This document shows positions 8,079-34,508 of a DNA stretch of 64,000 bases, piece by piece (position 1 is the stretch's first letter; every line of letters begins with the position of its first letter). Made by a program: the position numbers and the translations under genes. Source of the DNA: an uncultured Bacilli bacterium (GTDB lineage Bacteria > Bacillota_I > Bacilli_A > RF39 > UBA660); contig CAKPFM010000004.1 in NCBI GenBank assembly GCA_934153945.1, forward strand, positions 34,469 through 98,468, read 5' to 3'. The notes under the pieces were generated by a model. It worked only from the letters and a program-made list of their open reading frames with translations. It was not told the DNA's origin and did no database searches.

Positions 8079-8573
8079 GTGATAACTATGTATTATATGG
8101 ACTATTTTTTTTTATTTTCATTATTAGGTCATATTATAGAATCTTTCTTTTATACATCTGGTGATGGTGGAATTTTATATGGTCCTTATACACCAGTATA
8201 TGGAATAGGTGTATGTATAGTACTTTTTGTAACAAATATTATTAATAAAAAAAATATTAAATTTAAACCTTTTTATATTTTTTTAACAGGTTTTATTATA
8301 TTAAGTTTTATTGAATATATAGGTGGAATTTTAATAGAAAAAATATTTAAAGTAGTATTTTGGAATTATAGTAGTATGAAATTTCACATAGGAAATTATA
8401 TTTCACTAGAAATGGCCCTAATATGGGGAATAGCTTCATTAGTAATAGCATATTTAATTAAACCTTTTTGTGATAAATGGATAAAAAAAATACCCAAAAT
8501 TATTACATGGGTATTAATAATATTATTTTGTATAGATATTTTATTAACTTTGTTTACTAAAGTATTCTTCTAA
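8079..8573 (+). CDS. Integral membrane protein, unknown function
   Basis: Four to five hydrophobic segments. Contains a T9 run in the coding sequence. Confidence 0.4.
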   Translation: MITMYYMDYFFLFSLLGHIIESFFYTSGDGGILYGPYTPVYGIGVCIVLFVTNIINKKNIKFKPFYIFLTGFIILSFIEYIGGILIEKIFKVVFWNYSSMKFHIGNYISLEMALIWGIASLVIAYLIKPFCDKWIKKIPKIITWVLIILFCIDILLTLFTKVFF

Positions 8574-9200
8574 AGTTAATTTGTTTTCATAAATATATTC
8601 AGCTACATCTTTACCAACATATCGGTAATGCCATGGTTCATACTTAAAACCAGTTATCTTTTGTTTATCTTCAGGATATCTCATTATAAAACCATATTTG
8701 TAAGCATTATTTTTCATCCATTCAAATTCATTGCTTTCGGCAAATAAATTATAATCATTATTAGAACCCATTACATCGATAGCTAAACCAGTTTGATGTT
8801 CAGAATGTCCAGGTTTAGCGCTACATTTTAGAGCATATTTTAAACCTTTATCTTGAGTATATCCATCAAATAATTTTTTTTGATAATCATAATCACGATA
8901 AGCTGATACTACAATAATTTTATATCCTAATTTTTGAGCATCATTGAACAAATTTTCAAAATTTTTTAAAACTTCTTCTCGAACCTTTTTACCATTATAG
9001 GCCATATTATTAGGAATTTCTACTAAATCACTAGGTACATAAACTGCCGGTAATTTGTTATTTTTATTTACTAAAGTTAATATATTATCAGGATTTTTAA
9101 TTAGTTTGATATTTTTATAAAATCTCTTTTGATTAATCTTTATAATAAAGAAGATAATTATTAATATAATAATTATAATAATTGATATAATTTTTTTCAT
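8544..9200 (-). CDS. D-Ala-D-Ala carboxypeptidase, VanY/M15 family, membrane anchored
   Basis: N-terminal TM segment and the SEHQTGLAIDV zinc-binding motif of peptidase M15B. Confidence 0.7.
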   Translation of the reverse strand: MKKIISIIIIIILIIIFFIIKINQKRFYKNIKLIKNPDNILTLVNKNNKLPAVYVPSDLVEIPNNMAYNGKKVREEVLKNFENLFNDAQKLGYKIIVVSAYRDYDYQKKLFDGYTQDKGLKYALKCSAKPGHSEHQTGLAIDVMGSNNDYNLFAESNEFEWMKNNAYKYGFIMRYPEDKQKITGFKYEPWHYRYVGKDVAEYIYENKLTLEEYFSKQS

Positions 9201-19215: not shown

Positions 19216-20292
19216 ATGAAAAGAAAAGGATTTACGCTTGTGGAGTTATTAGCGGTAATAGTAATATTATCGGTAATAGCGTTAATCGCAACACCAATGA
19301 TATTAAACATAATAGAAGAAACCAAAAAAAGAAGCCTCGAAAATAGTGTTAAAGGACTATTAGAAGCATCAAATTATTTTGCAATAGAAAATAATGGAGT
19401 ATATGAATTTATATTTGATGAAACACATAAAGGAACAACAAAACAAGGAGAAAGATTAGATTATAAAGGAGAACTAGATGCAAAAGGAAAACTATATATA
19501 GATGAAGAAGGAGATATAAGTTTATGTGTATATAATGATAAATACTATGCATATAAAAATTATAATAGTGGAGTAATAATAGGAGAAAAAAGTAAAGATA
19601 ATTGTAATATAGATTATGATGGATTAACAAATAAGTATGTAGCTTACTTAGAAAGCGAAGGAATGAGTAGTAATGTATATACGAAAGAAGAAGTAAATGA
19701 ATTAGTTAGTAATTTAACAACAGAAATAAGTAGTTTAAAAAATAAAATTGAAGAATTAGAAAGCAATAATTATGCAACCAAGGAAGAATTAACAAATACA
19801 AGTGATAATTTAACAAATACAATTAATGAAAATAAAGCAAACATTGATAGTGTAAAAAATGGTTTAAATGAATATGCATTAAAAAGTGAATTAAGTAATA
19901 CAAATAATAATTTGATAACTACTAACAGTAATTTAGATGCTTTGACTAGTATTGTTAATAATAATAAATCTAATATAAATAATTTATCTACAAGCATTAA
20001 TAGTATAAAAGCACAAATTGGAACAAATTTTTATTCATTTAGTTATGATACCGGAGTACGTGGTTCAGAAATAACAAATGATATGATTATCAATGCATTA
20101 AAAATGGTTCCAGCCTCTTCAACATTTTTTGTTGTATATTTTAAATGTTTAGAAGGACAAAATGCTTCCTTAATTGGTTATAATTTGGGTAAGGAATATG
20201 GAACAGGATTATACTTTAATTACTATACTTCATCTTTAGTTTATAAATGGAAAAGTGAACTATATAATATAACATTAACTGAAGTTAAATAA
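19216..20292 (+). CDS. Prepilin-type (class III signal) N-terminal domain protein, paralog 1
   Basis: MKRKG|FTLVELLAVIVIL... with G-1/F+1/E+5 and a hydrophobic helix. AAGGAGA RBS. 358 aa, with an Asn-rich coiled region and a C-terminal globular part. Confidence 0.75.
   Translation: MKRKGFTLVELLAVIVILSVIALIATPMILNIIEETKKRSLENSVKGLLEASNYFAIENNGVYEFIFDETHKGTTKQGERLDYKGELDAKGKLYIDEEGDISLCVYNDKYYAYKNYNSGVIIGEKSKDNCNIDYDGLTNKYVAYLESEGMSSNVYTKEEVNELVSNLTTEISSLKNKIEELESNNYATKEELTNTSDNLTNTINENKANIDSVKNGLNEYALKSELSNTNNNLITTNSNLDALTSIVNNNKSNINNLSTSINSIKAQIGTNFYSFSYDTGVRGSEITNDMIINALKMVPASSTFFVVYFKCLEGQNASLIGYNLGKEYGTGLYFNYYTSSLVYKWKSELYNITLTEVK
19250..19319 (+). repeat. 70-nt segment that is near-identical (1 mismatch) to 62488-62557
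   Basis: By direct comparison, the 5' coding region of pilin-like paralogs 1 and 3 is almost the same. Confidence 0.85.
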
Positions 20293-23769: not shown

Positions 23770-23851
23770 GTTAAAATAAAAGTATAAATAGTAAATGAAA
23801 GATTTATAATGATACTAAATTCATTATTTTTATATTGAAAGGGTGTTAATA

Positions 23852-26800
23852 ATGAAAAGAAATGGATTTACGTTGATAGAATTATTAGCTGTTATAGTAA
23901 TATTATCGGTAATATCATTAATAACGATACCAATTGTAACAGGTGTGATAGATACATCAAGAAGAAATAGTTTTAAAGTAACATGTATGGAAATATATGA
24001 TTCATATGATACCTATGTTGTTGCAAATGATTCAATAGGAAAAAATAATTCAAATATTATATTTGATTTTTCAAGTAAAAGGCAAAATACAGAAATAATA
24101 GGGGATATTAAATATGAACCAGTAAGTAAATTGTATTTAAAAGGTGAATTACCTAATAATGGAAAATATCAAATAAAAAATGATAAAAGAACACTAAAAG
24201 CAGATAATGGAAGATATACATGTGTAATTGATGAAAATAGAAGTGAGATATTAGGTGGAACTGTAGAAGAAAATGATACAACAGCTCCAGTAATAAATGA
24301 TGTAGTAATAACAAGTACAACAAATAGTATAAAAGTAGTAGTGGATGCTATAGAAGAAGATGGAGTGATTGCTAAATATTATTATAAATTTAATGGAGAA
24401 GAAATAGTAAGTGAAAATAATAGTAAAACATACACTAATTTAAAAGCAAATGAAGAGTATGAGATAGAAGTAGTAGTAGAAAATAAAAGTGGATTAAAGA
24501 GTAATAAAGTAGTTAAAAAGATAATGACAAAAAGTGTTTCAAATCCAACAATCAAACAGACAGTGCAAACACCAAGTAGTGGATATAGTTATGCACAATC
24601 AAGAACAATTCAAATTACATATAGTAATACAAATGTAAATAGTCCAGTATATTACTTCAAATCAAGTGTAGGAGCAACAGTAGCTAGTGGAGTAGTAACA
24701 GCATCATGTGGAACAGGAACAAATCCAGGAACATGTACAAGTTCAAGTGTAACAACAATAGTAGCTAATACATGGTATAAAACAACAAGTACAACACCAA
24801 GTGTAATATATAAAGCAAATGGAACATTGTATGCGTTAACAAGTGATGGAGCAAATATATCAGGAACAAGTACATTTACAATAAGTAAGATAGATACAAG
24901 TGCCCCAAGTGCAAGCATGAGTGTAGGAAGTATCAAAACAGATAGAGCAACAATAACAGCGACATGTAGTGATGCACAGTCAGGAATAACAAAATATGAA
25001 TATAGTAAAGATAATGGAACAACATGGATAACAAATGGAACAACAAATAGTTATACATTTACAGGCTTAACAAAAGAAACAAGTTATAAATACAAAATAA
25101 GATGTACGAATGGAAGTGGCTTGACAAAAGAAGCAAGTAGTACAAGTAGTACATTAGGATTTACAAATCCAACAATAAAACAAACGAGTCAAACACCAAC
25201 AAGTGGAACATGGGCAACAAGTAGAACAATTCAAATTACATATAGTAATACGAATGTAACAAGTCCAGTATATTACTTCAAATCAAGTGTAGGAGCAACA
25301 GTAGCTAGTGGAGTAGTAACAGCTGCGTGTGGAACAGGAACAAATCCAGGAACATGTACAAGTTCAAATATAACAACATTAGTAGCTAATACATGGTATA
25401 AAACAACAAGTACAACACCAAGTGTAACATATAAAGCAAATGGAACATTGTATGCGTTAACAAGTGATGGAGCAAATATATCAGGAACAAGTACATTTAC
25501 AATAAGTAAGATAGATACAAGTGCCCCAAGTGCAAGCATGAGTGTAGGAAGTATCAAAACAGATAGAGCAACAATAACAGCGACATGTAGTGATGCACAG
25601 TCAGGAATAACAAAATATGAATATAGTAAAGATAATGGAACAACATGGATATCAAATGGAACAACAAATAGTTATACATTTACAGGCTTAACAAAAGAAA
25701 CAAGTTATCAATACAAAATAAGATGTACAAACGGAAGTGGCTTAACAAAAGAAGCAAGTAGTACAAGTAGTACATTAGGATTTACAAATCCAACAATAAA
25801 ACAAACGAGTCAAACACCAAGTAGTGGAACATGGGCAACAAGTAGAACAATTCAAATTACATATAGTAATACAAATGTAAATAGTCCAGTATATTACTTC
25901 AAATCAAGTGTAGGAGCAACAGTAGCTAGTGGAGTAGTAACAGCTGCGTGTGGAACAGGAACAAATCCAGGAACATGTACAAGTTCAAATATAACAACAT
26001 TAGTAGCTAATACATGGTATAAAACAACAAGTACAACACCAAGTGTAATATATAGAGCAAATGGAACATTGTATGCATTAACAAGTGATGGAAAGAATAT
26101 ATCAGGAACAAGTACATTTACAATAAGTAAGATAGATACAAGTGCCCCATCAATATATGCATATTCTGGAACAATGTTATATCAGGATCCATATTTCACT
26201 TTGGGAACTAATAGTACTAGTATTTATAATAATTTAGGAAATGGAACAGTAACAATTACTAGAAAAGAAATGTCAGGAACATATTATGGATATGGAATTG
26301 AAATATCAACAACAGGAACAGCAAGTCCAGGACATGGTGGTTTCACTTTCTATACAGTATCAGCTGCCAATAAGGAACTTATTACAATAATAAATGCGAA
26401 AATACCAGTAGGATATCAAATAAACTGGGCTTCAAATGAAGTAGGTAATGGTGGAGTATTTGAATGGTTAACCAGTCAAGCAGGAACCGGAAATTGGCAA
26501 ACATATATATTTAGATTAAAATGCGGTTCAAGTGGAACATTTGCAACAACAAATTTCTTCTATTTAACAGGTGGATCAACAGCAACAACATCTTCCCCAG
26601 TAACATGGCAAGTCCAATTAGCAACAACAATAGATACAACAAAATATGGAGCAAGTAATTTTATAGTATTTGCAGGAAAAGATACAGAAAGCGGAGTAGC
26701 AGCATTTGGGGTAAATCAAAGTAGTACTACAGAACCATCATGGACAGCAACAAATGTTGGATGGTGGGCAGGTGGATATACATCAAATAGAACATATTAT

Positions 26801-28105
26801 GTATGGATAAAGGATGCACTAGATAATGTAAGTAAAGTACCTGTGACATTAAGTTATATAGATAATGTAACAACTCCAACAGTAACATACAATGGAGGAA
26901 GTAATAGTCATAGTTGGAAGAACAACTATAATATAACATTAACATCAACAGCTACAAGTGGAATACATCATTATGAAGTAGATTGGGATGGAGATGGAAT
27001 AGCAAATCAAACTATAACTAGTAATTTTATACCATGGGATGGATATTCATCATGTAATAATAGATTTAGAGCAGTAAGTAATAATGGTGTAGAAAGCGCT
27101 TGGACAAGTTCTCATGATATCCACATGGATACAAGCGCACCAGGAGCAACAACAATAACGTATAATGGTGGAGCAAATACATGTATATGGAAAAATAACT
27201 ATAATTTGACATTAACGTCAACGGATAATGTAGGAGTTTCATATTATCAAATAGATACAAATAATGATGGAGTGGCAGATACAACAGTAGGAAGTAGTTT
27301 TATTCCAACAAATGGATGGAGTACATGTACTGCAAGATTTAGAGCAGTAGATGGTGCTGGAAATGTTGGACCATGGACAGAAAAGCAACATATCCACATG
27401 GATACAGAAAAACCAGTACATACAAATTGGTGGTGGGGAGAAGTTACTAAAGATGTGGCAAGATTATATGTTCAAGCAACAGATAATGTAGGATTACCAG
27501 CTAATGCAACAACATACGATGGACATAATGCAGGAGTGTACTGTCCAACCTCAACACAAAGTGGCGGATATACAAACTTTGTATGGTTTAAAGGAAATTG
27601 GGACGCGAGTGCAAATGCATATAGATGTGATATAACGCCAAGTACTTTTGGACACTATGGACAAACATATAGAACACATTTATACATATATGATTATGTA
27701 GGAAATGGTGGATACTATAATGCAACATCAGTAAATATACCAACACCTAGTTATGCAGCAACAAATTCAAGTTATGCGGCAACTCCTAATACAACAACTT
27801 ATCCAACACAACCTACTGGAGAAACATATCGTTGTTGTTGGCATATAAGTAGTGCTAATGCATCAAAGAGTCAATGTGCTAGTGATACTATTGTAGATTA
27901 TGAAGATGGAAGTGGAAGATGGGAATGCGATCAATGTAGTACCTGTCCTAGAAAAGCATGTACAAATGGAGGAACGCAAAATGGTGATATTTGTACAAAG
28001 ACTGAATATACATGTCCAAATGGAGGAACTTTAAGTGGAACGACATGTGTCTTATATACATGTCCAAATGGAGGAACCTTAAGTGGAACAACATGTGTCA
28101 AATAA
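23852..28105 (+). CDS. Giant prepilin-type N-terminal domain protein, paralog 2, with FN3-like and tandem repeat modules and a Cys-rich C-terminus
   Basis: ATG at 23852 after an AAGGGTG RBS. MKRNG|FTLIELLAVIVIL. About 1417 aa, very rich in Thr/Ser/Gly/Asn. Confidence 0.8.
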   Translation: MKRNGFTLIELLAVIVILSVISLITIPIVTGVIDTSRRNSFKVTCMEIYDSYDTYVVANDSIGKNNSNIIFDFSSKRQNTEIIGDIKYEPVSKLYLKGELPNNGKYQIKNDKRTLKADNGRYTCVIDENRSEILGGTVEENDTTAPVINDVVITSTTNSIKVVVDAIEEDGVIAKYYYKFNGEEIVSENNSKTYTNLKANEEYEIEVVVENKSGLKSNKVVKKIMTKSVSNPTIKQTVQTPSSGYSYAQSRTIQITYSNTNVNSPVYYFKSSVGATVASGVVTASCGTGTNPGTCTSSSVTTIVANTWYKTTSTTPSVIYKANGTLYALTSDGANISGTSTFTISKIDTSAPSASMSVGSIKTDRATITATCSDAQSGITKYEYSKDNGTTWITNGTTNSYTFTGLTKETSYKYKIRCTNGSGLTKEASSTSSTLGFTNPTIKQTSQTPTSGTWATSRTIQITYSNTNVTSPVYYFKSSVGATVASGVVTAACGTGTNPGTCTSSNITTLVANTWYKTTSTTPSVTYKANGTLYALTSDGANISGTSTFTISKIDTSAPSASMSVGSIKTDRATITATCSDAQSGITKYEYSKDNGTTWISNGTTNSYTFTGLTKETSYQYKIRCTNGSGLTKEASSTSSTLGFTNPTIKQTSQTPSSGTWATSRTIQITYSNTNVNSPVYYFKSSVGATVASGVVTAACGTGTNPGTCTSSNITTLVANTWYKTTSTTPSVIYRANGTLYALTSDGKNISGTSTFTISKIDTSAPSIYAYSGTMLYQDPYFTLGTNSTSIYNNLGNGTVTITRKEMSGTYYGYGIEISTTGTASPGHGGFTFYTVSAANKELITIINAKIPVGYQINWASNEVGNGGVFEWLTSQAGTGNWQTYIFRLKCGSSGTFATTNFFYLTGGSTATTSSPVTWQVQLATTIDTTKYGASNFIVFAGKDTESGVAAFGVNQSSTTEPSWTATNVGWWAGGYTSNRTYYVWIKDALDNVSKVPVTLSYIDNVTTPTVTYNGGSNSHSWKNNYNITLTSTATSGIHHYEVDWDGDGIANQTITSNFIPWDGYSSCNNRFRAVSNNGVESAWTSSHDIHMDTSAPGATTITYNGGANTCIWKNNYNLTLTSTDNVGVSYYQIDTNNDGVADTTVGSSFIPTNGWSTCTARFRAVDGAGNVGPWTEKQHIHMDTEKPVHTNWWWGEVTKDVARLYVQATDNVGLPANATTYDGHNAGVYCPTSTQSGGYTNFVWFKGNWDASANAYRCDITPSTFGHYGQTYRTHLYIYDYVGNGGYYNATSVNIPTPSYAATNSSYAATPNTTTYPTQPTGETYRCCWHISSANASKSQCASDTIVDYEDGSGRWECDQCSTCPRKACTNGGTQNGDICTKTEYTCPNGGTLSGTTCVLYTCPNGGTLSGTTCVK
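24542..26150 (+). repeat. About 2.6 tandem copies of a 621/624-bp near-identical unit inside the CDS
   Basis: Copies start at 24542, 25166 and 25787. The antisense ORFs 24652-24936 and 25273-25557 translate almost identically. Confidence 0.85.
26868..27410 (+). repeat. Two divergent copies of a roughly 270-bp module
   Basis: Repeated TYNGG.N..W.NNYN.TLTST...RFRAV...HMDT pattern. Confidence 0.5.
28004..28096 (+). repeat. Two 45-48-nt direct repeats encoding YTCPNGGTLSGTTCV
   Basis: At the extreme C-terminus; a degenerate third copy lies upstream. Confidence 0.8.
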
Positions 28106-31405: not shown

Positions 31406-31998
31406 AATTCATAACTATTATCAGTAATTATACCTATATTATCAGGTAATTTATCAAGTAATTTATAATTATTAACAGTCCATATAAATAAATCTTTATT
31501 AAAATTTTTTTTGACATTATAATGTACTGATAAAAAATCAAATAGATTGATATCTTTATTAATATTCATATTATATCCTATAATAAGACCAACTTTTAAT
31601 GATTTATAATTATTTTTTAAAGTATAAACAAAATCATAATTAAAACTACAAATATAGATATTTAAATACTTATATTTTTTAATAAATTTATAAAATTTAT
31701 CTATATCTATATTATCTTTAATATCAAGTATTATTATTTTATCAGTATTAATATTACTTAAAAGATATTCTAAAGTAGTAAGATTTAAATCTTTAGAATT
31801 AGTTTTTGAAATAAAATAAATATTATGATTTTTTTTAATAAAAGAATTATGATTTAAAACTAATACATTATCTAGAGAATTTCTAACATCTATTTCTATA
31901 CCATATATATAGTCATAATTGATAATAGTTTTTAAACATTCAAATTTATTTTCACAACTTCCACTATTATTACCTCTATGAGCTATAAATTTATACAT
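31390..31998 (-). CDS. Glycerophosphodiester phosphodiesterase family protein
   Basis: MYKFIAHRG catalytic His-Arg motif. 202 aa. Confidence 0.7.
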   Translation of the reverse strand: MYKFIAHRGNNSGSCENKFECLKTIINYDYIYGIEIDVRNSLDNVLVLNHNSFIKKNHNIYFISKTNSKDLNLTTLEYLLSNINTDKIIILDIKDNIDIDKFYKFIKKYKYLNIYICSFNYDFVYTLKNNYKSLKVGLIIGYNMNINKDINLFDFLSVHYNVKKNFNKDLFIWTVNNYKLLDKLPDNIGIITDNSYELKKST

Positions 31999-33157
31999 TT
32001 CTTAATTTCTCTATTTCTTTAAGTTCAGGAATAGTAACAAGTTCAAAACCTTGTTTTTTTATTTCAGTAATTATTTTGTCAACAGCTAATGCACTAGTTT
32101 TATAAATATCATGCATTAAAATAATATCGCCATCTTTTAACTTTTTAGTTGCTCTAGATACAATAGTACTAACATTTCGATATTTCCAATCCATAGTATC
32201 GACTGTCCATAAGACTATATCCATATTTAAATGTTTCACTTTATTATTAACAGAACCATAAGTAGGTCTAAGTAAAGTAGGTGTAAATCCTGTGTATAAT
32301 TTGATTTCTTCATTAGTTTTAATTATTTGATTATTTAATTCATCTTCGTTTAATTTAATTAACCATTTATGATTATAAGAATGATTACCTAATATATTAC
32401 CATTATTTAAAGATTGATTTAATAGTTCTTGATAAGGTTTTACTTTATTACCAAGTATAAAGAAAGTAGCATTTACTTCATGTTTTTTTAAAGTATCAAT
32501 AATTTCTTTAGTATAAATACTAGGGCCATCATCAAAAGTAAGTGCTACATATTTTTTGTTTATATCAAGTACTTTATTATTTATTTTATAACTATTAACT
32601 TTTGCATAATTATTTTTAATATTTAAATCAATTTTATAATCTATATTACTATAATTTTTTCTAATAGTCTTATTATTAGAATTTATATATATATTCAAAT
32701 CATTATCAATAAAGAATGGTAATTTATTAATATAATTATCAAGATAATGAATATTAATATTTTCTTTTACTAAATTATTTTTAATTTGATAAATAGAATT
32801 ATTATCAACTATATCATTAATATTTAAAAAATTATTATTATTTATATCAAAAAAATAAGTTTTAACATAATTACTAGAATTGAGACTTATATCAAGTAAT
32901 ATATTAATAAATCCATCAAATTCATTTATTTTATAATCAATATTTAATTCATCTTTGTTATTGTATTTATTTTTAAAATCGTTATATATATTATCAATAT
33001 CTAATTTAATAATATCATTTAGTTTTTTATAATCAGTGTTAGGGTAATTTATACAAATTAAATTATTATCATTTTCTTCTATAATAGTTGTTATTAATTC
33101 CTTGTTAGTACAACCTATACATAAAAATAAAAAAATAGTCATTAATATTCTTTTCAT
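31991..33157 (-). CDS. Polysaccharide deacetylase (NodB-homology) lipoprotein
   Basis: Lipobox CIGC, VALTFDDGP motif 1, and later His motifs. Its stop overlaps the GDPD start by 8 bp. Confidence 0.8.
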   Translation of the reverse strand: MKRILMTIFLFLCIGCTNKELITTIIEENDNNLICINYPNTDYKKLNDIIKLDIDNIYNDFKNKYNNKDELNIDYKINEFDGFINILLDISLNSSNYVKTYFFDINNNNFLNINDIVDNNSIYQIKNNLVKENINIHYLDNYINKLPFFIDNDLNIYINSNNKTIRKNYSNIDYKIDLNIKNNYAKVNSYKINNKVLDINKKYVALTFDDGPSIYTKEIIDTLKKHEVNATFFILGNKVKPYQELLNQSLNNGNILGNHSYNHKWLIKLNEDELNNQIIKTNEEIKLYTGFTPTLLRPTYGSVNNKVKHLNMDIVLWTVDTMDWKYRNVSTIVSRATKKLKDGDIILMHDIYKTSALAVDKIITEIKKQGFELVTIPELKEIEKLRNV

Positions 33158-33258
33158 AACTTCACCTATTAAATTGTATGTAAAAATTAAAAAATAATAA
33201 GAAAAAAGTAATTACAGTATTTATTAAAAGTTCATATACCATAGTAGGAGGAGATAAT

Positions 33259-33603
33259 ATGGAAAACTTTTTCCCAGAGCATCTTTTAGAACTATTAGTA
33301 ATAAGTATGACTTTTAGTGTTATTTTAATGATGTTAATTCAAAAATTAAAAAAATTAAGTTTTATTACTAAATCATGGCAAGTATGGTTTTTAAATTTGA
33401 TATTCTCATTTGCTATAGGTATACCATTTACAATAGCCTTCTATAAATTAACTATATATGATGGAATATGGGTAGGATTATTTAGTTTTATTGGAGCTGC
33501 AAGTATCTATCAAACTTTAAAAAAACAAAATTTAATTAATTATAATCCAACATCAGTATCAGATACTGTAACTATTTCTAAAGATAAGGAGATTAAAAGA
33601 TGA
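33259..33603 (+). CDS. Holin-like small membrane protein
   Basis: 114 aa with three predicted TM segments and a charged C-terminus. Its stop overlaps (ATGA) the start of the M23 peptidase. Confidence 0.4.
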   Translation: MENFFPEHLLELLVISMTFSVILMMLIQKLKKLSFITKSWQVWFLNLIFSFAIGIPFTIAFYKLTIYDGIWVGLFSFIGAASIYQTLKKQNLINYNPTSVSDTVTISKDKEIKR

Positions 33604-34508
33604 ACTATTTGGGTAGTAGTCGTGTTGTTACCAATCCTTTTTCATCGCATATTACCGCAGAAGACTACGCAGGTGAGCATAAATCAAAAGTGTCAATGTA
33701 TGGAAAGGGAAAAGTTACTAAAATAATTAATAAATTTAAAAGTCATGAAGACAGCATAAATTACAATACCTTTTTAGAATCAAAAAATAATTGGCGAGAT
33801 GGAAATTATTACAATTGTATTTCAATAACTGGTAAATCAGTTAGAATGCATTATGAAGAATTAGGCGGTAATCAAGTTTTTGTAGAAACATATGATAAAG
33901 AAAAAGTTTTATGTTTTAGATTTGCTCATTTAGATACAGTATGTGTTAATGTTGGTGATATAGTTGATGAAAATACCATATTAGGTTATCAAGGTAACAC
34001 AGGACTTGTTTTATCAAATAAAAGCTATAGTGATCCAACATATGCTAGTCATGTTCATTTAGAAATAACGGATTCGCTAGGCAATTATCAAAATCCAAGA
34101 AGTTATGCGGATGGTAGTACGTACACAACTTATGTAGAACAAACTAATGTGTTTGATCCTAAAAAATTTCAATTTAAAGTAAATGTTGACCAAATAAATA
34201 TAAGAGAACAACCTACAGTAAATTCAAAAGATATTGGTGATGTTTATTTAAATGAAGTTTATGATATACTAGATGAAGTAGATTCAAGTGAATATCATTG
34301 GTATAAAATTACAACAACAAGAGGAGTAACTGGATATGTAGCAAACTTAAAAAATAGTAATTGGATGACTTTATATTATCCTGATGAAGATATTAACCCA
34401 GATGTAGAAGTAGATGAATCAAAAGATGATAATATAATATTTGAGTGTAATGAAGAAGGATACTATTATATTTACTTATATAAAGGTGAAAAATTAGTAA
34501 TAAAATAA
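33600..34508 (+). CDS. Peptidase M23 (lysostaphin-like) with a C-terminal SH3b cell-wall binding domain
   Basis: FAHLD...VGDIV...GYQGNTG...HVHLE motifs. The C-terminal part is SH3_3-like (YHWYKITTTRGVTGYV). Confidence 0.75.
   Translation: MNYLGSSRVVTNPFSSHITAEDYAGEHKSKVSMYGKGKVTKIINKFKSHEDSINYNTFLESKNNWRDGNYYNCISITGKSVRMHYEELGGNQVFVETYDKEKVLCFRFAHLDTVCVNVGDIVDENTILGYQGNTGLVLSNKSYSDPTYASHVHLEITDSLGNYQNPRSYADGSTYTTYVEQTNVFDPKKFQFKVNVDQINIREQPTVNSKDIGDVYLNEVYDILDEVDSSEYHWYKITTTRGVTGYVANLKNSNWMTLYYPDEDINPDVEVDESKDDNIIFECNEEGYYYIYLYKGEKLVIK

Follow-up and report, generated by a model that had tools for sequence, protein, structure and literature searches.

The 64-kb stretch of DNA analysed here (the window, 64,000 nucleotides (nt) of contig CAKPFM010000004.1 from an uncultured Bacilli bacterium) carries on its plus strand two overlapping genes arranged like a phage lysis cassette: a holin-like gene encoding 114 amino acids (33259..33603) and a gene encoding a peptidase of 302 amino acids with an M23 catalytic domain and an SH3b domain (33600..34508). 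The stop codon TGA of the small open reading frame (ORF; 33601-33603) and the start codon ATG of the peptidase ORF (33600-33602) share the tetranucleotide ATGA, which was read at 33600-33603 just as an earlier sequence-only reading of this stretch had described it. The holin-like gene is preceded by the Shine-Dalgarno sequence AGGAGG (33246..33251, by direct reading of the sequence), and that of the peptidase gene, AAGGAG (33586..33591), lies within the 3' end of the holin-like gene. Further upstream on the same strand are a -10-like element of the sigma-E/sigma-K type, CATATACC (33233..33240, 26 nt before the start codon), and a -35-like element, TTACAG (33212..33217), whose AC at 33214-33215 stands 17 nt before the CATA of the -10 element. 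The pair is more than a chance arrangement, since it is conserved and under purifying selection in the related loci with which the window was compared (L007, L012 and other L-numbers in the following).

The small protein has three hydrophobic segments by hydropathy, and an AlphaFold2 (AF2) model built on 27 homologues places helices at residues 7-30, 39-62 and 66-89, giving three transmembrane (TM) segments encoded at 33277-33348 (TM1), 33373-33444 (TM2) and 33454-33525 (TM3). The tail after the third helix (33526-33600) is disordered in the model, carries a net positive charge and is predicted to be cytoplasmic; ORF, hydropathy and model all agree with the three-TM protein with a charged C-terminus that had been proposed from the sequence. 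An N-out/C-in topology, predicted from the positive-inside rule only, would fit the protein because its N-terminus is acidic, its first loop rich in lysine and its tail basic. The sequence-only reading had also suggested a profile search against holin families, and this search matched the window protein to phrog_1299 (holin) of the PHROGs database at E=2e-6, with no holin match in Pfam and no match in NCBIfam. Among 27 diverse relatives, 25 matched phrog_1299 (best E=1.6e-9) and 10 matched PF06946, the Hol118 holin family (best E=4.4e-6). Since the window protein matches phrog_1299 and its relatives match phrog_1299 or PF06946, it is probably a distant relative of the A118/Hol118-type holin family rather than a clear member of it.

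The Hol118-type holins of Listeria phage A118 (PF06946; PHROG 1299) are likewise small three-TM proteins with a charged C-terminal tail, encoded upstream of a signal-less hydrolase. Unlike these cassettes, the pair described here is chromosomal, apparently vertically inherited and outside any phage; its holin-like protein has no Pfam match in the window, it has no conserved internal antiholin start, and it is preceded by a promoter of predicted sporulation type. In Hol118, a second in-frame start gives rise to an inhibitor isoform. A corresponding dual-start antiholin was considered for the present family and rejected, as the 27-sequence alignment has no conserved internal methionine near TM1 and M17 of the window protein is an isoleucine in close relatives.

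The catalytic domain of the partner enzyme, an M23 (LAS) metallopeptidase domain, begins at residue 1 and extends to residue 180 (33600..34139). It is followed by an SH3b (SH3_3) wall-binding domain at residues of about 190-255 (34167..34364), by an acidic linker of variable length in the alignment (34365..34436; predicted local distance difference test score (pLDDT) <50 at residues 266-276) and by a family-specific C-terminal tail, IIFECNEEGYYYIYLYKGEKLVIK, with the motif LIFTCxKxGxYxIxLxxGxKLY and then the stop codon (34437..34508). The SH3_3 domain (PF08239) was recognised by Pfam at residues 199-249 with 39.5 bits against a cut-off of 27, whereas Peptidase_M23 (PF01551) reached 27.9 bits in the window enzyme, just under its cut-off of 28.7; a precomputed PF01551 match is present in nearly all orthologues. 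The M23 motifs are H17-x4-D22 (one residue longer than the canonical form), H110 in AHL and H151-V-H153. Across 23 orthologues H17, D22, H110 and H151 never vary and H153 hardly does, so that the predicted zinc site is intact. The AF2 model of the enzyme (pLDDT 90.8), in which the SH3b region is all-beta, is most similar to full-length lysostaphin (4lxc, E=1.6e-8), followed by EnpA, LytM, zoocin A and ShyA. The lysostaphin-type M23 peptidase with an SH3b domain of the sequence-only reading is borne out by this model together with the SH3_3 score and the retained catalytic residues. Lysostaphin, LytM and prophage EnpA have the same M23 fold and the same HxnD...H...HxH zinc-site residues, and lysostaphin in addition has the same two-domain M23+SH3b layout. 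In contrast to all three, the enzyme has neither a signal peptide nor a pro-region, and it is distinguished by the extra residue in H17-x4-D22, by an insertion before HxH and by its unique LIFTC tail. Its N-terminus lacks a hydrophobic segment (maximum hydropathy 1.16), and a signal peptide, with which an M23 protein might have acted alone, was found in none of the 52 partner peptidases scored. That the enzyme would need some non-Sec route to the wall is well supported by these predictions.

The C-terminal motif, in its full form [KR]LIFTCxKxGxYxIxLxxGxKLY[LI], is present in all 52 partner peptidases listed (degenerate in a few) and accompanies every catalytic subtype: members of this family have either a canonical M23 domain or a divergent LAS-like one for catalysis, may or may not carry an SH3b domain or a coiled coil, and differ in their linkers. 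When a profile of the tail was compared with 1.84 billion proteins, only 51 cluster representatives were found, the matches lying at or within a few residues of the C-terminus except for three long multi-stretch matches, and 8 of the 10 full-length proteins found in this way have an M23 domain. A homologue search with the C-terminal motif returned only 8 contig-end fragments. The holin tail, for its part, ends in a motif such as KENEIKR, KENIINK or DEIIGE. Expressed as a regular expression that was defined after inspection of the data, this motif occurs in 50 of 53 holins with an adjacent enzyme as opposed to 12 of 27 without one, counts that ignore phylogeny; the three enzyme-paired holins missed by the expression look by eye like near-variants. 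Because the holin motif co-occurs with the enzyme and the enzyme has a private tail, this exploratory comparison suggests that the two tails may recognise each other. The length of the holin tail was also considered as a correlate of enzyme presence and was rejected (p=0.056, not significant).

Homologues come from metagenomes and metagenome-assembled genomes (MAGs) only. A scan of one genome per species gave 94 matches, of which 80 were kept, all of them gut MAGs labelled uncultured Bacilli, Bacillales, Tenericutes or Mollicutes. The holin-like gene is found among housekeeping genes in every locus and in several gene orders, such as between a divergent deacetylase gene and hup (the type of the window), after the gene for pyruvate:ferredoxin oxidoreductase or after rplM-rpsI. 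A partner gene, which belongs to one family throughout, overlaps or abuts the holin-like gene in 54 of the 80 loci after removal of duplicates (58 before), with a spacing of -26 to +5 nt that is mostly an overlap (-1 to -26) and in a few cases a short gap. In about a third of the loci the holin-like gene has no enzyme gene within 6 kb, and its role as the more persistent of the two partners is well supported by this survey. Locus L012 comes from the same or a sister species as the window (94-98% nucleotide identity in housekeeping genes); between these two, the ratio of nonsynonymous to synonymous substitution rates (dN/dS) is 0.05 for the holin-like gene (dS 0.45) and 0.075 for the M23 gene (dS 0.73). 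Other pairs of loci give ratios of 0.08-0.37, and holin-like genes without an adjacent enzyme 0.07-0.22. Both genes are under strong purifying selection. The synonymous divergence between the window and L012 is itself higher in the block of deacetylase, holin-like and M23 genes (0.50, 0.45 and 0.73) than in its flanks (0.27 for the parC-like gene, 0.05 for hup, 0.23 for spoVG and 0.14 for hrcA), which could reflect lower codon bias or allelic recombination.

Relatives in viruses are scarce. A tblastn search of 50,697 phage records (INPHARED) found none for the holin and a single weak partial match for the M23 enzyme, P0077 gave only matches of E=0.6 against phage records, and scans of IMG/VR returned one distant holin and no M23 relative. 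This holin, the only viral relative found, is encoded on L092 (6245-8279; IMG/VR UViG 3300045988_132578), where genes for an XhlA-like protein, a second holin of 75 amino acids and an amidase endolysin precede the Hol118-like gene; with the 75-residue protein counted in, this phage thus encodes two proteins of the holin type. An ORF of 378 amino acids that resembles a reverse transcriptase is located just upstream. A different extension is seen in 17 of the related loci, the window not being among them, in which an extra gene directly upstream of the holin-like gene makes up a three-gene cassette (L001 7680-8000; L008 3499-3828; 15 other loci). Its product of 106-109 amino acids has an N-terminal TM helix and matches PHROG 4105 (function not assigned) at E=1e-14; it could be an antiholin or a lysis regulator.

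Neither the window nor the related loci resemble a prophage. The neighbours of the pair encode, according to Pfam, a GDPD protein, a polysaccharide deacetylase lipoprotein, HU, SpoVG and a queuosine-salvage protein, and the first four of these had already been named correctly from the sequence. About 39 of the 63 crude ORFs of the window, those scanned with Pfam, are housekeeping genes, including hrcA-grpE-dnaK and those for PolC, ArgRS, VanY, EzrA, GAPDH, PBP1, a histidine kinase, a ParC-like protein and a Clp ATPase. There is no phage gene among the annotated window ORFs, where annotation means the Pfam scan of these approximately 39 of 63 and a PHROGs scan that covered the pair only; the remaining ORFs, including a dnaK-dnaJ stretch, were unscanned or without a Pfam match. 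The window has no tRNA gene and no break in composition, a search for att-like flanking repeats gave AT-rich noise only, and Rfam at E<=0.1 found no element between 30000 and 37000. The placement of the pair outside any prophage, as claimed by the sequence-only reading, is thus upheld by the annotated ORFs and the repeat search. Phage genes are likewise absent from those gene lists of related loci that carry precomputed Pfam labels; for the other related loci, genes were grouped into recurrent families, and these are housekeeping wherever annotated.

The deacetylase lipoprotein is encoded divergently from the pair (31991..33157, minus strand; Pfam Polysacc_deac_1) and has an N-terminal domain of the PdaC-N/DUF3298 type as well as its own -10 element of CATA-type architecture, CATACAAT (plus-strand 33173-33180). 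Its gene adjoins the pair in 15 species-level loci that all belong to one synteny group, and it was rejected as a universal partner on these grounds; it is a conserved neighbour in that group and would at most be a candidate part of the mechanism. NCBIfam gave matches to both the PgdA and the PdaB type, all below cut-off. Residues 36-116 of the deacetylase align (E=3e-5) with a stand-alone DUF3298/PdaC-N protein in L073 (5230-5928), which precedes the cassette in another synteny group, so that two unrelated gene orders place this domain beside the pair.

When the sequences upstream of the first cassette gene were aligned for all loci, a conserved element with the consensus CATAtAnnATAgT emerged about 8-12 nt before the ribosome-binding site. 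The promoter form AC-N16/17-CATATAnn precedes the cassette in at least 9 different upstream-gene contexts, and the window promoter, with its AC at 33214-15, a spacing of 17 nt and CATATACC at 33233-40, fits the sigma-K form. A CATA located 14-34 nt before the start codon was found in 45 of 79 cassettes (57%), compared to 67 of 467 other genes with an upstream gap (14%; nominal p=4e-15), whereas TATAAT was not enriched (28% in cassettes and in other genes). An AC with its C at -17/-18 is present in 16 of 45 non-redundant cassette promoters as against 10% of background CATA[TAC]A sites (p=6e-6), and any C at -17/-18 in 30 of 45 as against 28.5% (p=1e-7). In Clostridioides difficile, sigma-E and sigma-K promoters share their -10 element and differ in the -35 element, which is AC for sigma-K and ATA for sigma-E, and a mapped sigma-K promoter combines the -10 CATATAAT with a -35 AC (PMC3789822). 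A scan for sigma-70 promoters and terminators found fewer sites than in shuffled sequence and nothing useful near the pair.

The same arrangement of CATA[TAC]A and ribosome-binding site is rare among about 950 other genes of the loci and is mostly found on sporulation genes, which were confirmed by Pfam or NCBIfam: those for YunB, a CwlD-like amidase (188 bits on the CwlD equivalog), a CotJC-like protein (a Mn-catalase/ferritin protein), SpoVT and a BclA-type protein. The deacetylase lipoprotein and the PdaC-N/DUF3298 protein also carry it, and spoIID in L007 and L010 has CATACTAAT at the same position. The promoters of yunB, cwlD and spoIID have no C at -17/-18 and that of the bclA-like gene has one, a distribution that agrees with the distinction made in the literature between sigma-E and sigma-K promoters, although the cases are very few. 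The collagen-like protein of 306 amino acids with GPxGPxG repeats that is encoded behind a sigma-K-like promoter in L082 (5564-6484, minus strand) is probably a BclA-type exosporium protein. In the window itself the architecture is restricted to 3 of 63 genes, namely the holin-like gene, the deacetylase gene (CATACAAT) and the gene for a VanY/LdcB-type D-Ala-D-Ala carboxypeptidase (8544-9200, minus strand), which has GCATATTTTATAGTGGTG 22 nt before its start codon. Because this promoter architecture is like that of the cassette, it suggests that the carboxypeptidase may be another wall enzyme expressed during sporulation. Transcription of the cassette by a mother-cell sporulation sigma factor of the sigma-K type would be the most economical account of these motifs.

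Based on these comparisons, the interpretation of the pair as a functional, vertically inherited, phage-derived operon of the holin-endolysin type is well supported. The relationship of the small protein to holins, the signal-less M23+SH3b enzyme, the housekeeping context in 80 genomes and the purifying selection all speak for the domesticated phage-type lysis module that the sequence-only reading had considered. The host clade carries GerAC, SpoIID and YunB; its members appear to be uncultured endospore-forming gut Bacilli in which the pair is a stable chromosomal operon. Among the functions that had been proposed from the sequence, a role in sporulation has gained from the sigma-K-like promoter that the cassette has in common with sporulation genes, whereas TcdE-type protein release and fratricide are unsupported because neither a signal-less cargo gene nor an immunity gene is conserved beside the pair. 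We therefore tentatively favour, as the most likely function, a domesticated lysis cassette that is controlled by a mother-cell sporulation sigma factor and serves mother-cell lysis and spore release. A hole-forming protein and a cross-link-cutting enzyme that would both be made late in the mother cell point to such an event.

The process might proceed as follows. A mother-cell sporulation sigma factor would transcribe the two translationally coupled genes from AC-N17-CATATACC, presumably late, because the promoter form is of the sigma-K type. The M23/SH3b enzyme, probably a DD-endopeptidase-type enzyme, would accumulate in folded form in the mother-cell cytoplasm because it has no export signal, while the Hol118-like protein would accumulate in the membrane and form lesions upon reaching a critical level. 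The enzyme could then reach the mother-cell peptidoglycan and cut its peptide cross-links, leading to release of the spore, and its C-terminal tail and the end of the cytoplasmic holin tail may couple the two proteins. Sigma-factor dependence, compartment, timing, hole formation, lysis and tail-to-tail contact are all inferred in this scheme. A more specific version, which we consider possible but doubtful, regards the small protein as a dedicated sporulation holin, i.e., as the clock for a late opening of the mother-cell membrane, which would allow signal-less hydrolases to reach the wall and free the spore; the hydrolase of the window would then be a co-evolved M23 enzyme with a private docking tail, and other enzymes would serve where it has been lost.

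Several observations weigh against mother-cell lysis as the function. The small protein of the window has no Pfam match even at E<=0.1, and comparison of the holin model with viral structures gave no significant fold match (best E=0.3). The enzyme is not indispensable, given that about a third of the lineages have no adjacent enzyme gene. The promoter motif is short and AT-rich, the cassettes themselves served to train its position matrix, and the p-values given above are inflated because the loci are phylogenetically related. In addition, the -10 elements of sigma-E and sigma-K are nearly identical, and forespore sigma factors are possible as well, since a spoVT gene carries the same motif. 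Among its annotated ORFs the window has no sporulation-specific gene beyond spoVG, which is non-specific. Finally, the neighbours in three synteny groups are spore-cortex genes (deacetylase, PdaC-N/DUF3298 protein, CwlD), and these would suit a role in the cortex at least as well as one in lysis. Such a role, in which the pair would be sporulation-specific and non-lytic, with the holin-like protein passing a LytH (YunA)-like or cortex-lytic enzyme, made in the mother cell, across the outer forespore membrane to the cortex, whose peptidoglycan it would trim or mature, is in our view unlikely, although some of the evidence serves it well. The promoter data apply to it equally, the deacetylase, the PdaC-N/DUF3298 protein and a CwlD-like amidase (two genes away) lie near the cassette in three synteny groups, and yunB is found about 5 kb away in L014 and L016. 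CwlD and PdaA are known as a cortex-modifying pair (PMC6021603), and LytH of Bacillus subtilis is an M23 endopeptidase produced only during sporulation that acts on spore-associated peptidoglycan and on which the structure of the cortex depends (PMC9662197). LytH has no holin partner, though, and no specific sequence relationship between it and the enzyme was detected, NCBIfam giving only a weak match to SpoIIQ. Moreover, the adjacency of cortex genes represents synteny within related genomes and hence is not independent evidence, and other cortex enzymes at these loci, such as the deacetylase, have signal or lipoprotein sequences of their own. Proteins of the holin families make non-selective lethal lesions, which would suit a terminal event better than ongoing synthesis of the cortex.

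Functions unrelated to sporulation have to be considered as well. The combination of M23 and SH3b domains is that of lysostaphin-type bacteriocins, and the enzyme might be released as a bacteriolysin against neighbours, like lysostaphin or zoocin; alternatively, the pair might be a holin-gated autolysin of vegetative cells, for cell separation or the release of DNA or nutrients. The M23 gene has a dS of 0.73 between the window and L012 that exceeds the 0.05-0.32 of flanking genes, and a housekeeping sigma factor might use the promoter, as the CATATAAT form contains the hexamer TATAAT. On the other hand, neither the conserved C of CATA nor the AC at -17/-18 belongs to a housekeeping promoter, TATAAT is not enriched, and most of the genes with the same motif are those of sporulation. 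A conserved immunity (Fem-like) gene or regulator is missing beside the pair, and its low dN/dS gives no sign of arms-race diversification; autolysis or killing is distinctly unlikely. Pairs of a holin and an endopeptidase also drive protein secretion (PMC4259817, PMC3369941), and in at least 14 species of a distant branch the pair either immediately precedes genes for an EssC-like ATPase and small WXG-sized proteins or lies no more than about 3 kb from them. A non-lytic, type-10-like secretion of signal-less cargo through local openings in membrane and wall, perhaps in the service of a type VII locus in the distant branch, is nevertheless very unlikely for the pair: no candidate cargo gene stands beside it in the window or in most synteny groups, the 64-kb window has no EssC, and the EssC adjacency is limited to one related synteny block, where it may be inherited gene order only. 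That the pair is a decaying prophage remnant without present function is scarcely credible. Both genes do have relatives in phage families, and the extra upstream gene of the 17 loci belongs to a phage family, phrog_4105, but decay is contradicted by the data on selection and conservation, i.e., by intact ORFs in 80 species-level genomes, a dN/dS of 0.05-0.08 at unsaturated dS and the conserved synteny, promoter and translational coupling; nor is there any phage gene among the annotated ORFs of the 64 kb.

The EssC-linked loci comprise L007 (10001-16528), L010 (10001-16456), L011, L055, L065, L067, L069-L071, L075-L078, L081 and L090. The ATPase has 1530 amino acids with FHA and FtsK/SpoIIIE domains and is followed by small genes encoding 85, 91 and 69 amino acids; in L081 the EssC gene directly follows the holin-like gene, and in L007 and L010 it has a CATATAG element.

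Domesticated pairs of holin and hydrolase and holin-like sporulation proteins are both already known. ChiW/ChiX of Serratia and TcdE/TcdL of C. difficile are likewise phage-derived combinations of a holin and a hydrolase that are chromosomal and used by the host. They differ from the present pair in their holin family, and no conserved cargo gene stands beside the pair in any of its synteny groups; its spread is that of a clade-wide core-genome element rather than of a pathogenicity island, and its promoter is of predicted sporulation type. Two proteins of holin character have sporulation roles in Bacillus: YwcE of B. subtilis, a holin-like protein involved in coat assembly (PMC11599450), and SpoIISA, a membrane toxin tied to sporulation (PMC4526809). 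Both are, similarly, small or three-TM membrane proteins, yet they belong to unrelated families and neither is coupled to a gene for a signal-less hydrolase. With regard to the proposed job and timing, the closest counterparts are the late mother-cell hydrolases CwlB/LytC, CwlC and CwlH of Bacillus (PMC13599503, PMC6403190). These are amidases, however, without homology to the M23 endopeptidase, and no holin was linked to them in the literature found on these enzymes. CwlH is reportedly sigma-K-dependent, to go by the title of a 1999 paper by Nugroho. What is new here is a clade-wide core operon of a holin-like and an M23 gene, its sporulation-type promoter and the private C-terminal tail of its enzyme.

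Elsewhere in the window, two pilin-like genes were noted on the plus strand. The larger one (23843-28105) encodes a protein of 1420 amino acids that starts with a prepilin-type N-terminus, MKRNGFTLIELLAVIVILSVISL, and contains three nearly identical repeats of about 210 amino acids and a duplicated Cys-rich C-terminal unit, CPNGGTLSGTTCV. The second (19216-20292), with an N_methyl motif, is located upstream of it.

Lysis of the mother cell is described as incompletely understood, and the literature consulted names nothing but hydrolases for it, namely CwlB, CwlC and CwlH (PMC13599503, PMC6403190, PMC6016235). The step of timing and export that is missing from the opening of the mother cell could be provided by a holin expressed late from a mother-cell promoter, and the question of mother-cell lysis becomes testable with the pair described here. 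If the small protein is indeed a dedicated sporulation holin, no holin-endolysin system would have been assigned to mother-cell lysis before this one, and it would be a case in which the lysis clock of a phage has been taken over by a developmental programme. The LIFTC tail of the enzyme and the matching tail of the holin could, in addition, define a new mechanism of recognition between holin and endolysin, and the promoter motif offers a means to predict the sporulation regulon in these genomes. Given that the clade consists of abundant uncultured gut Bacilli, the way in which their spores are released would also bear on transmission between hosts.

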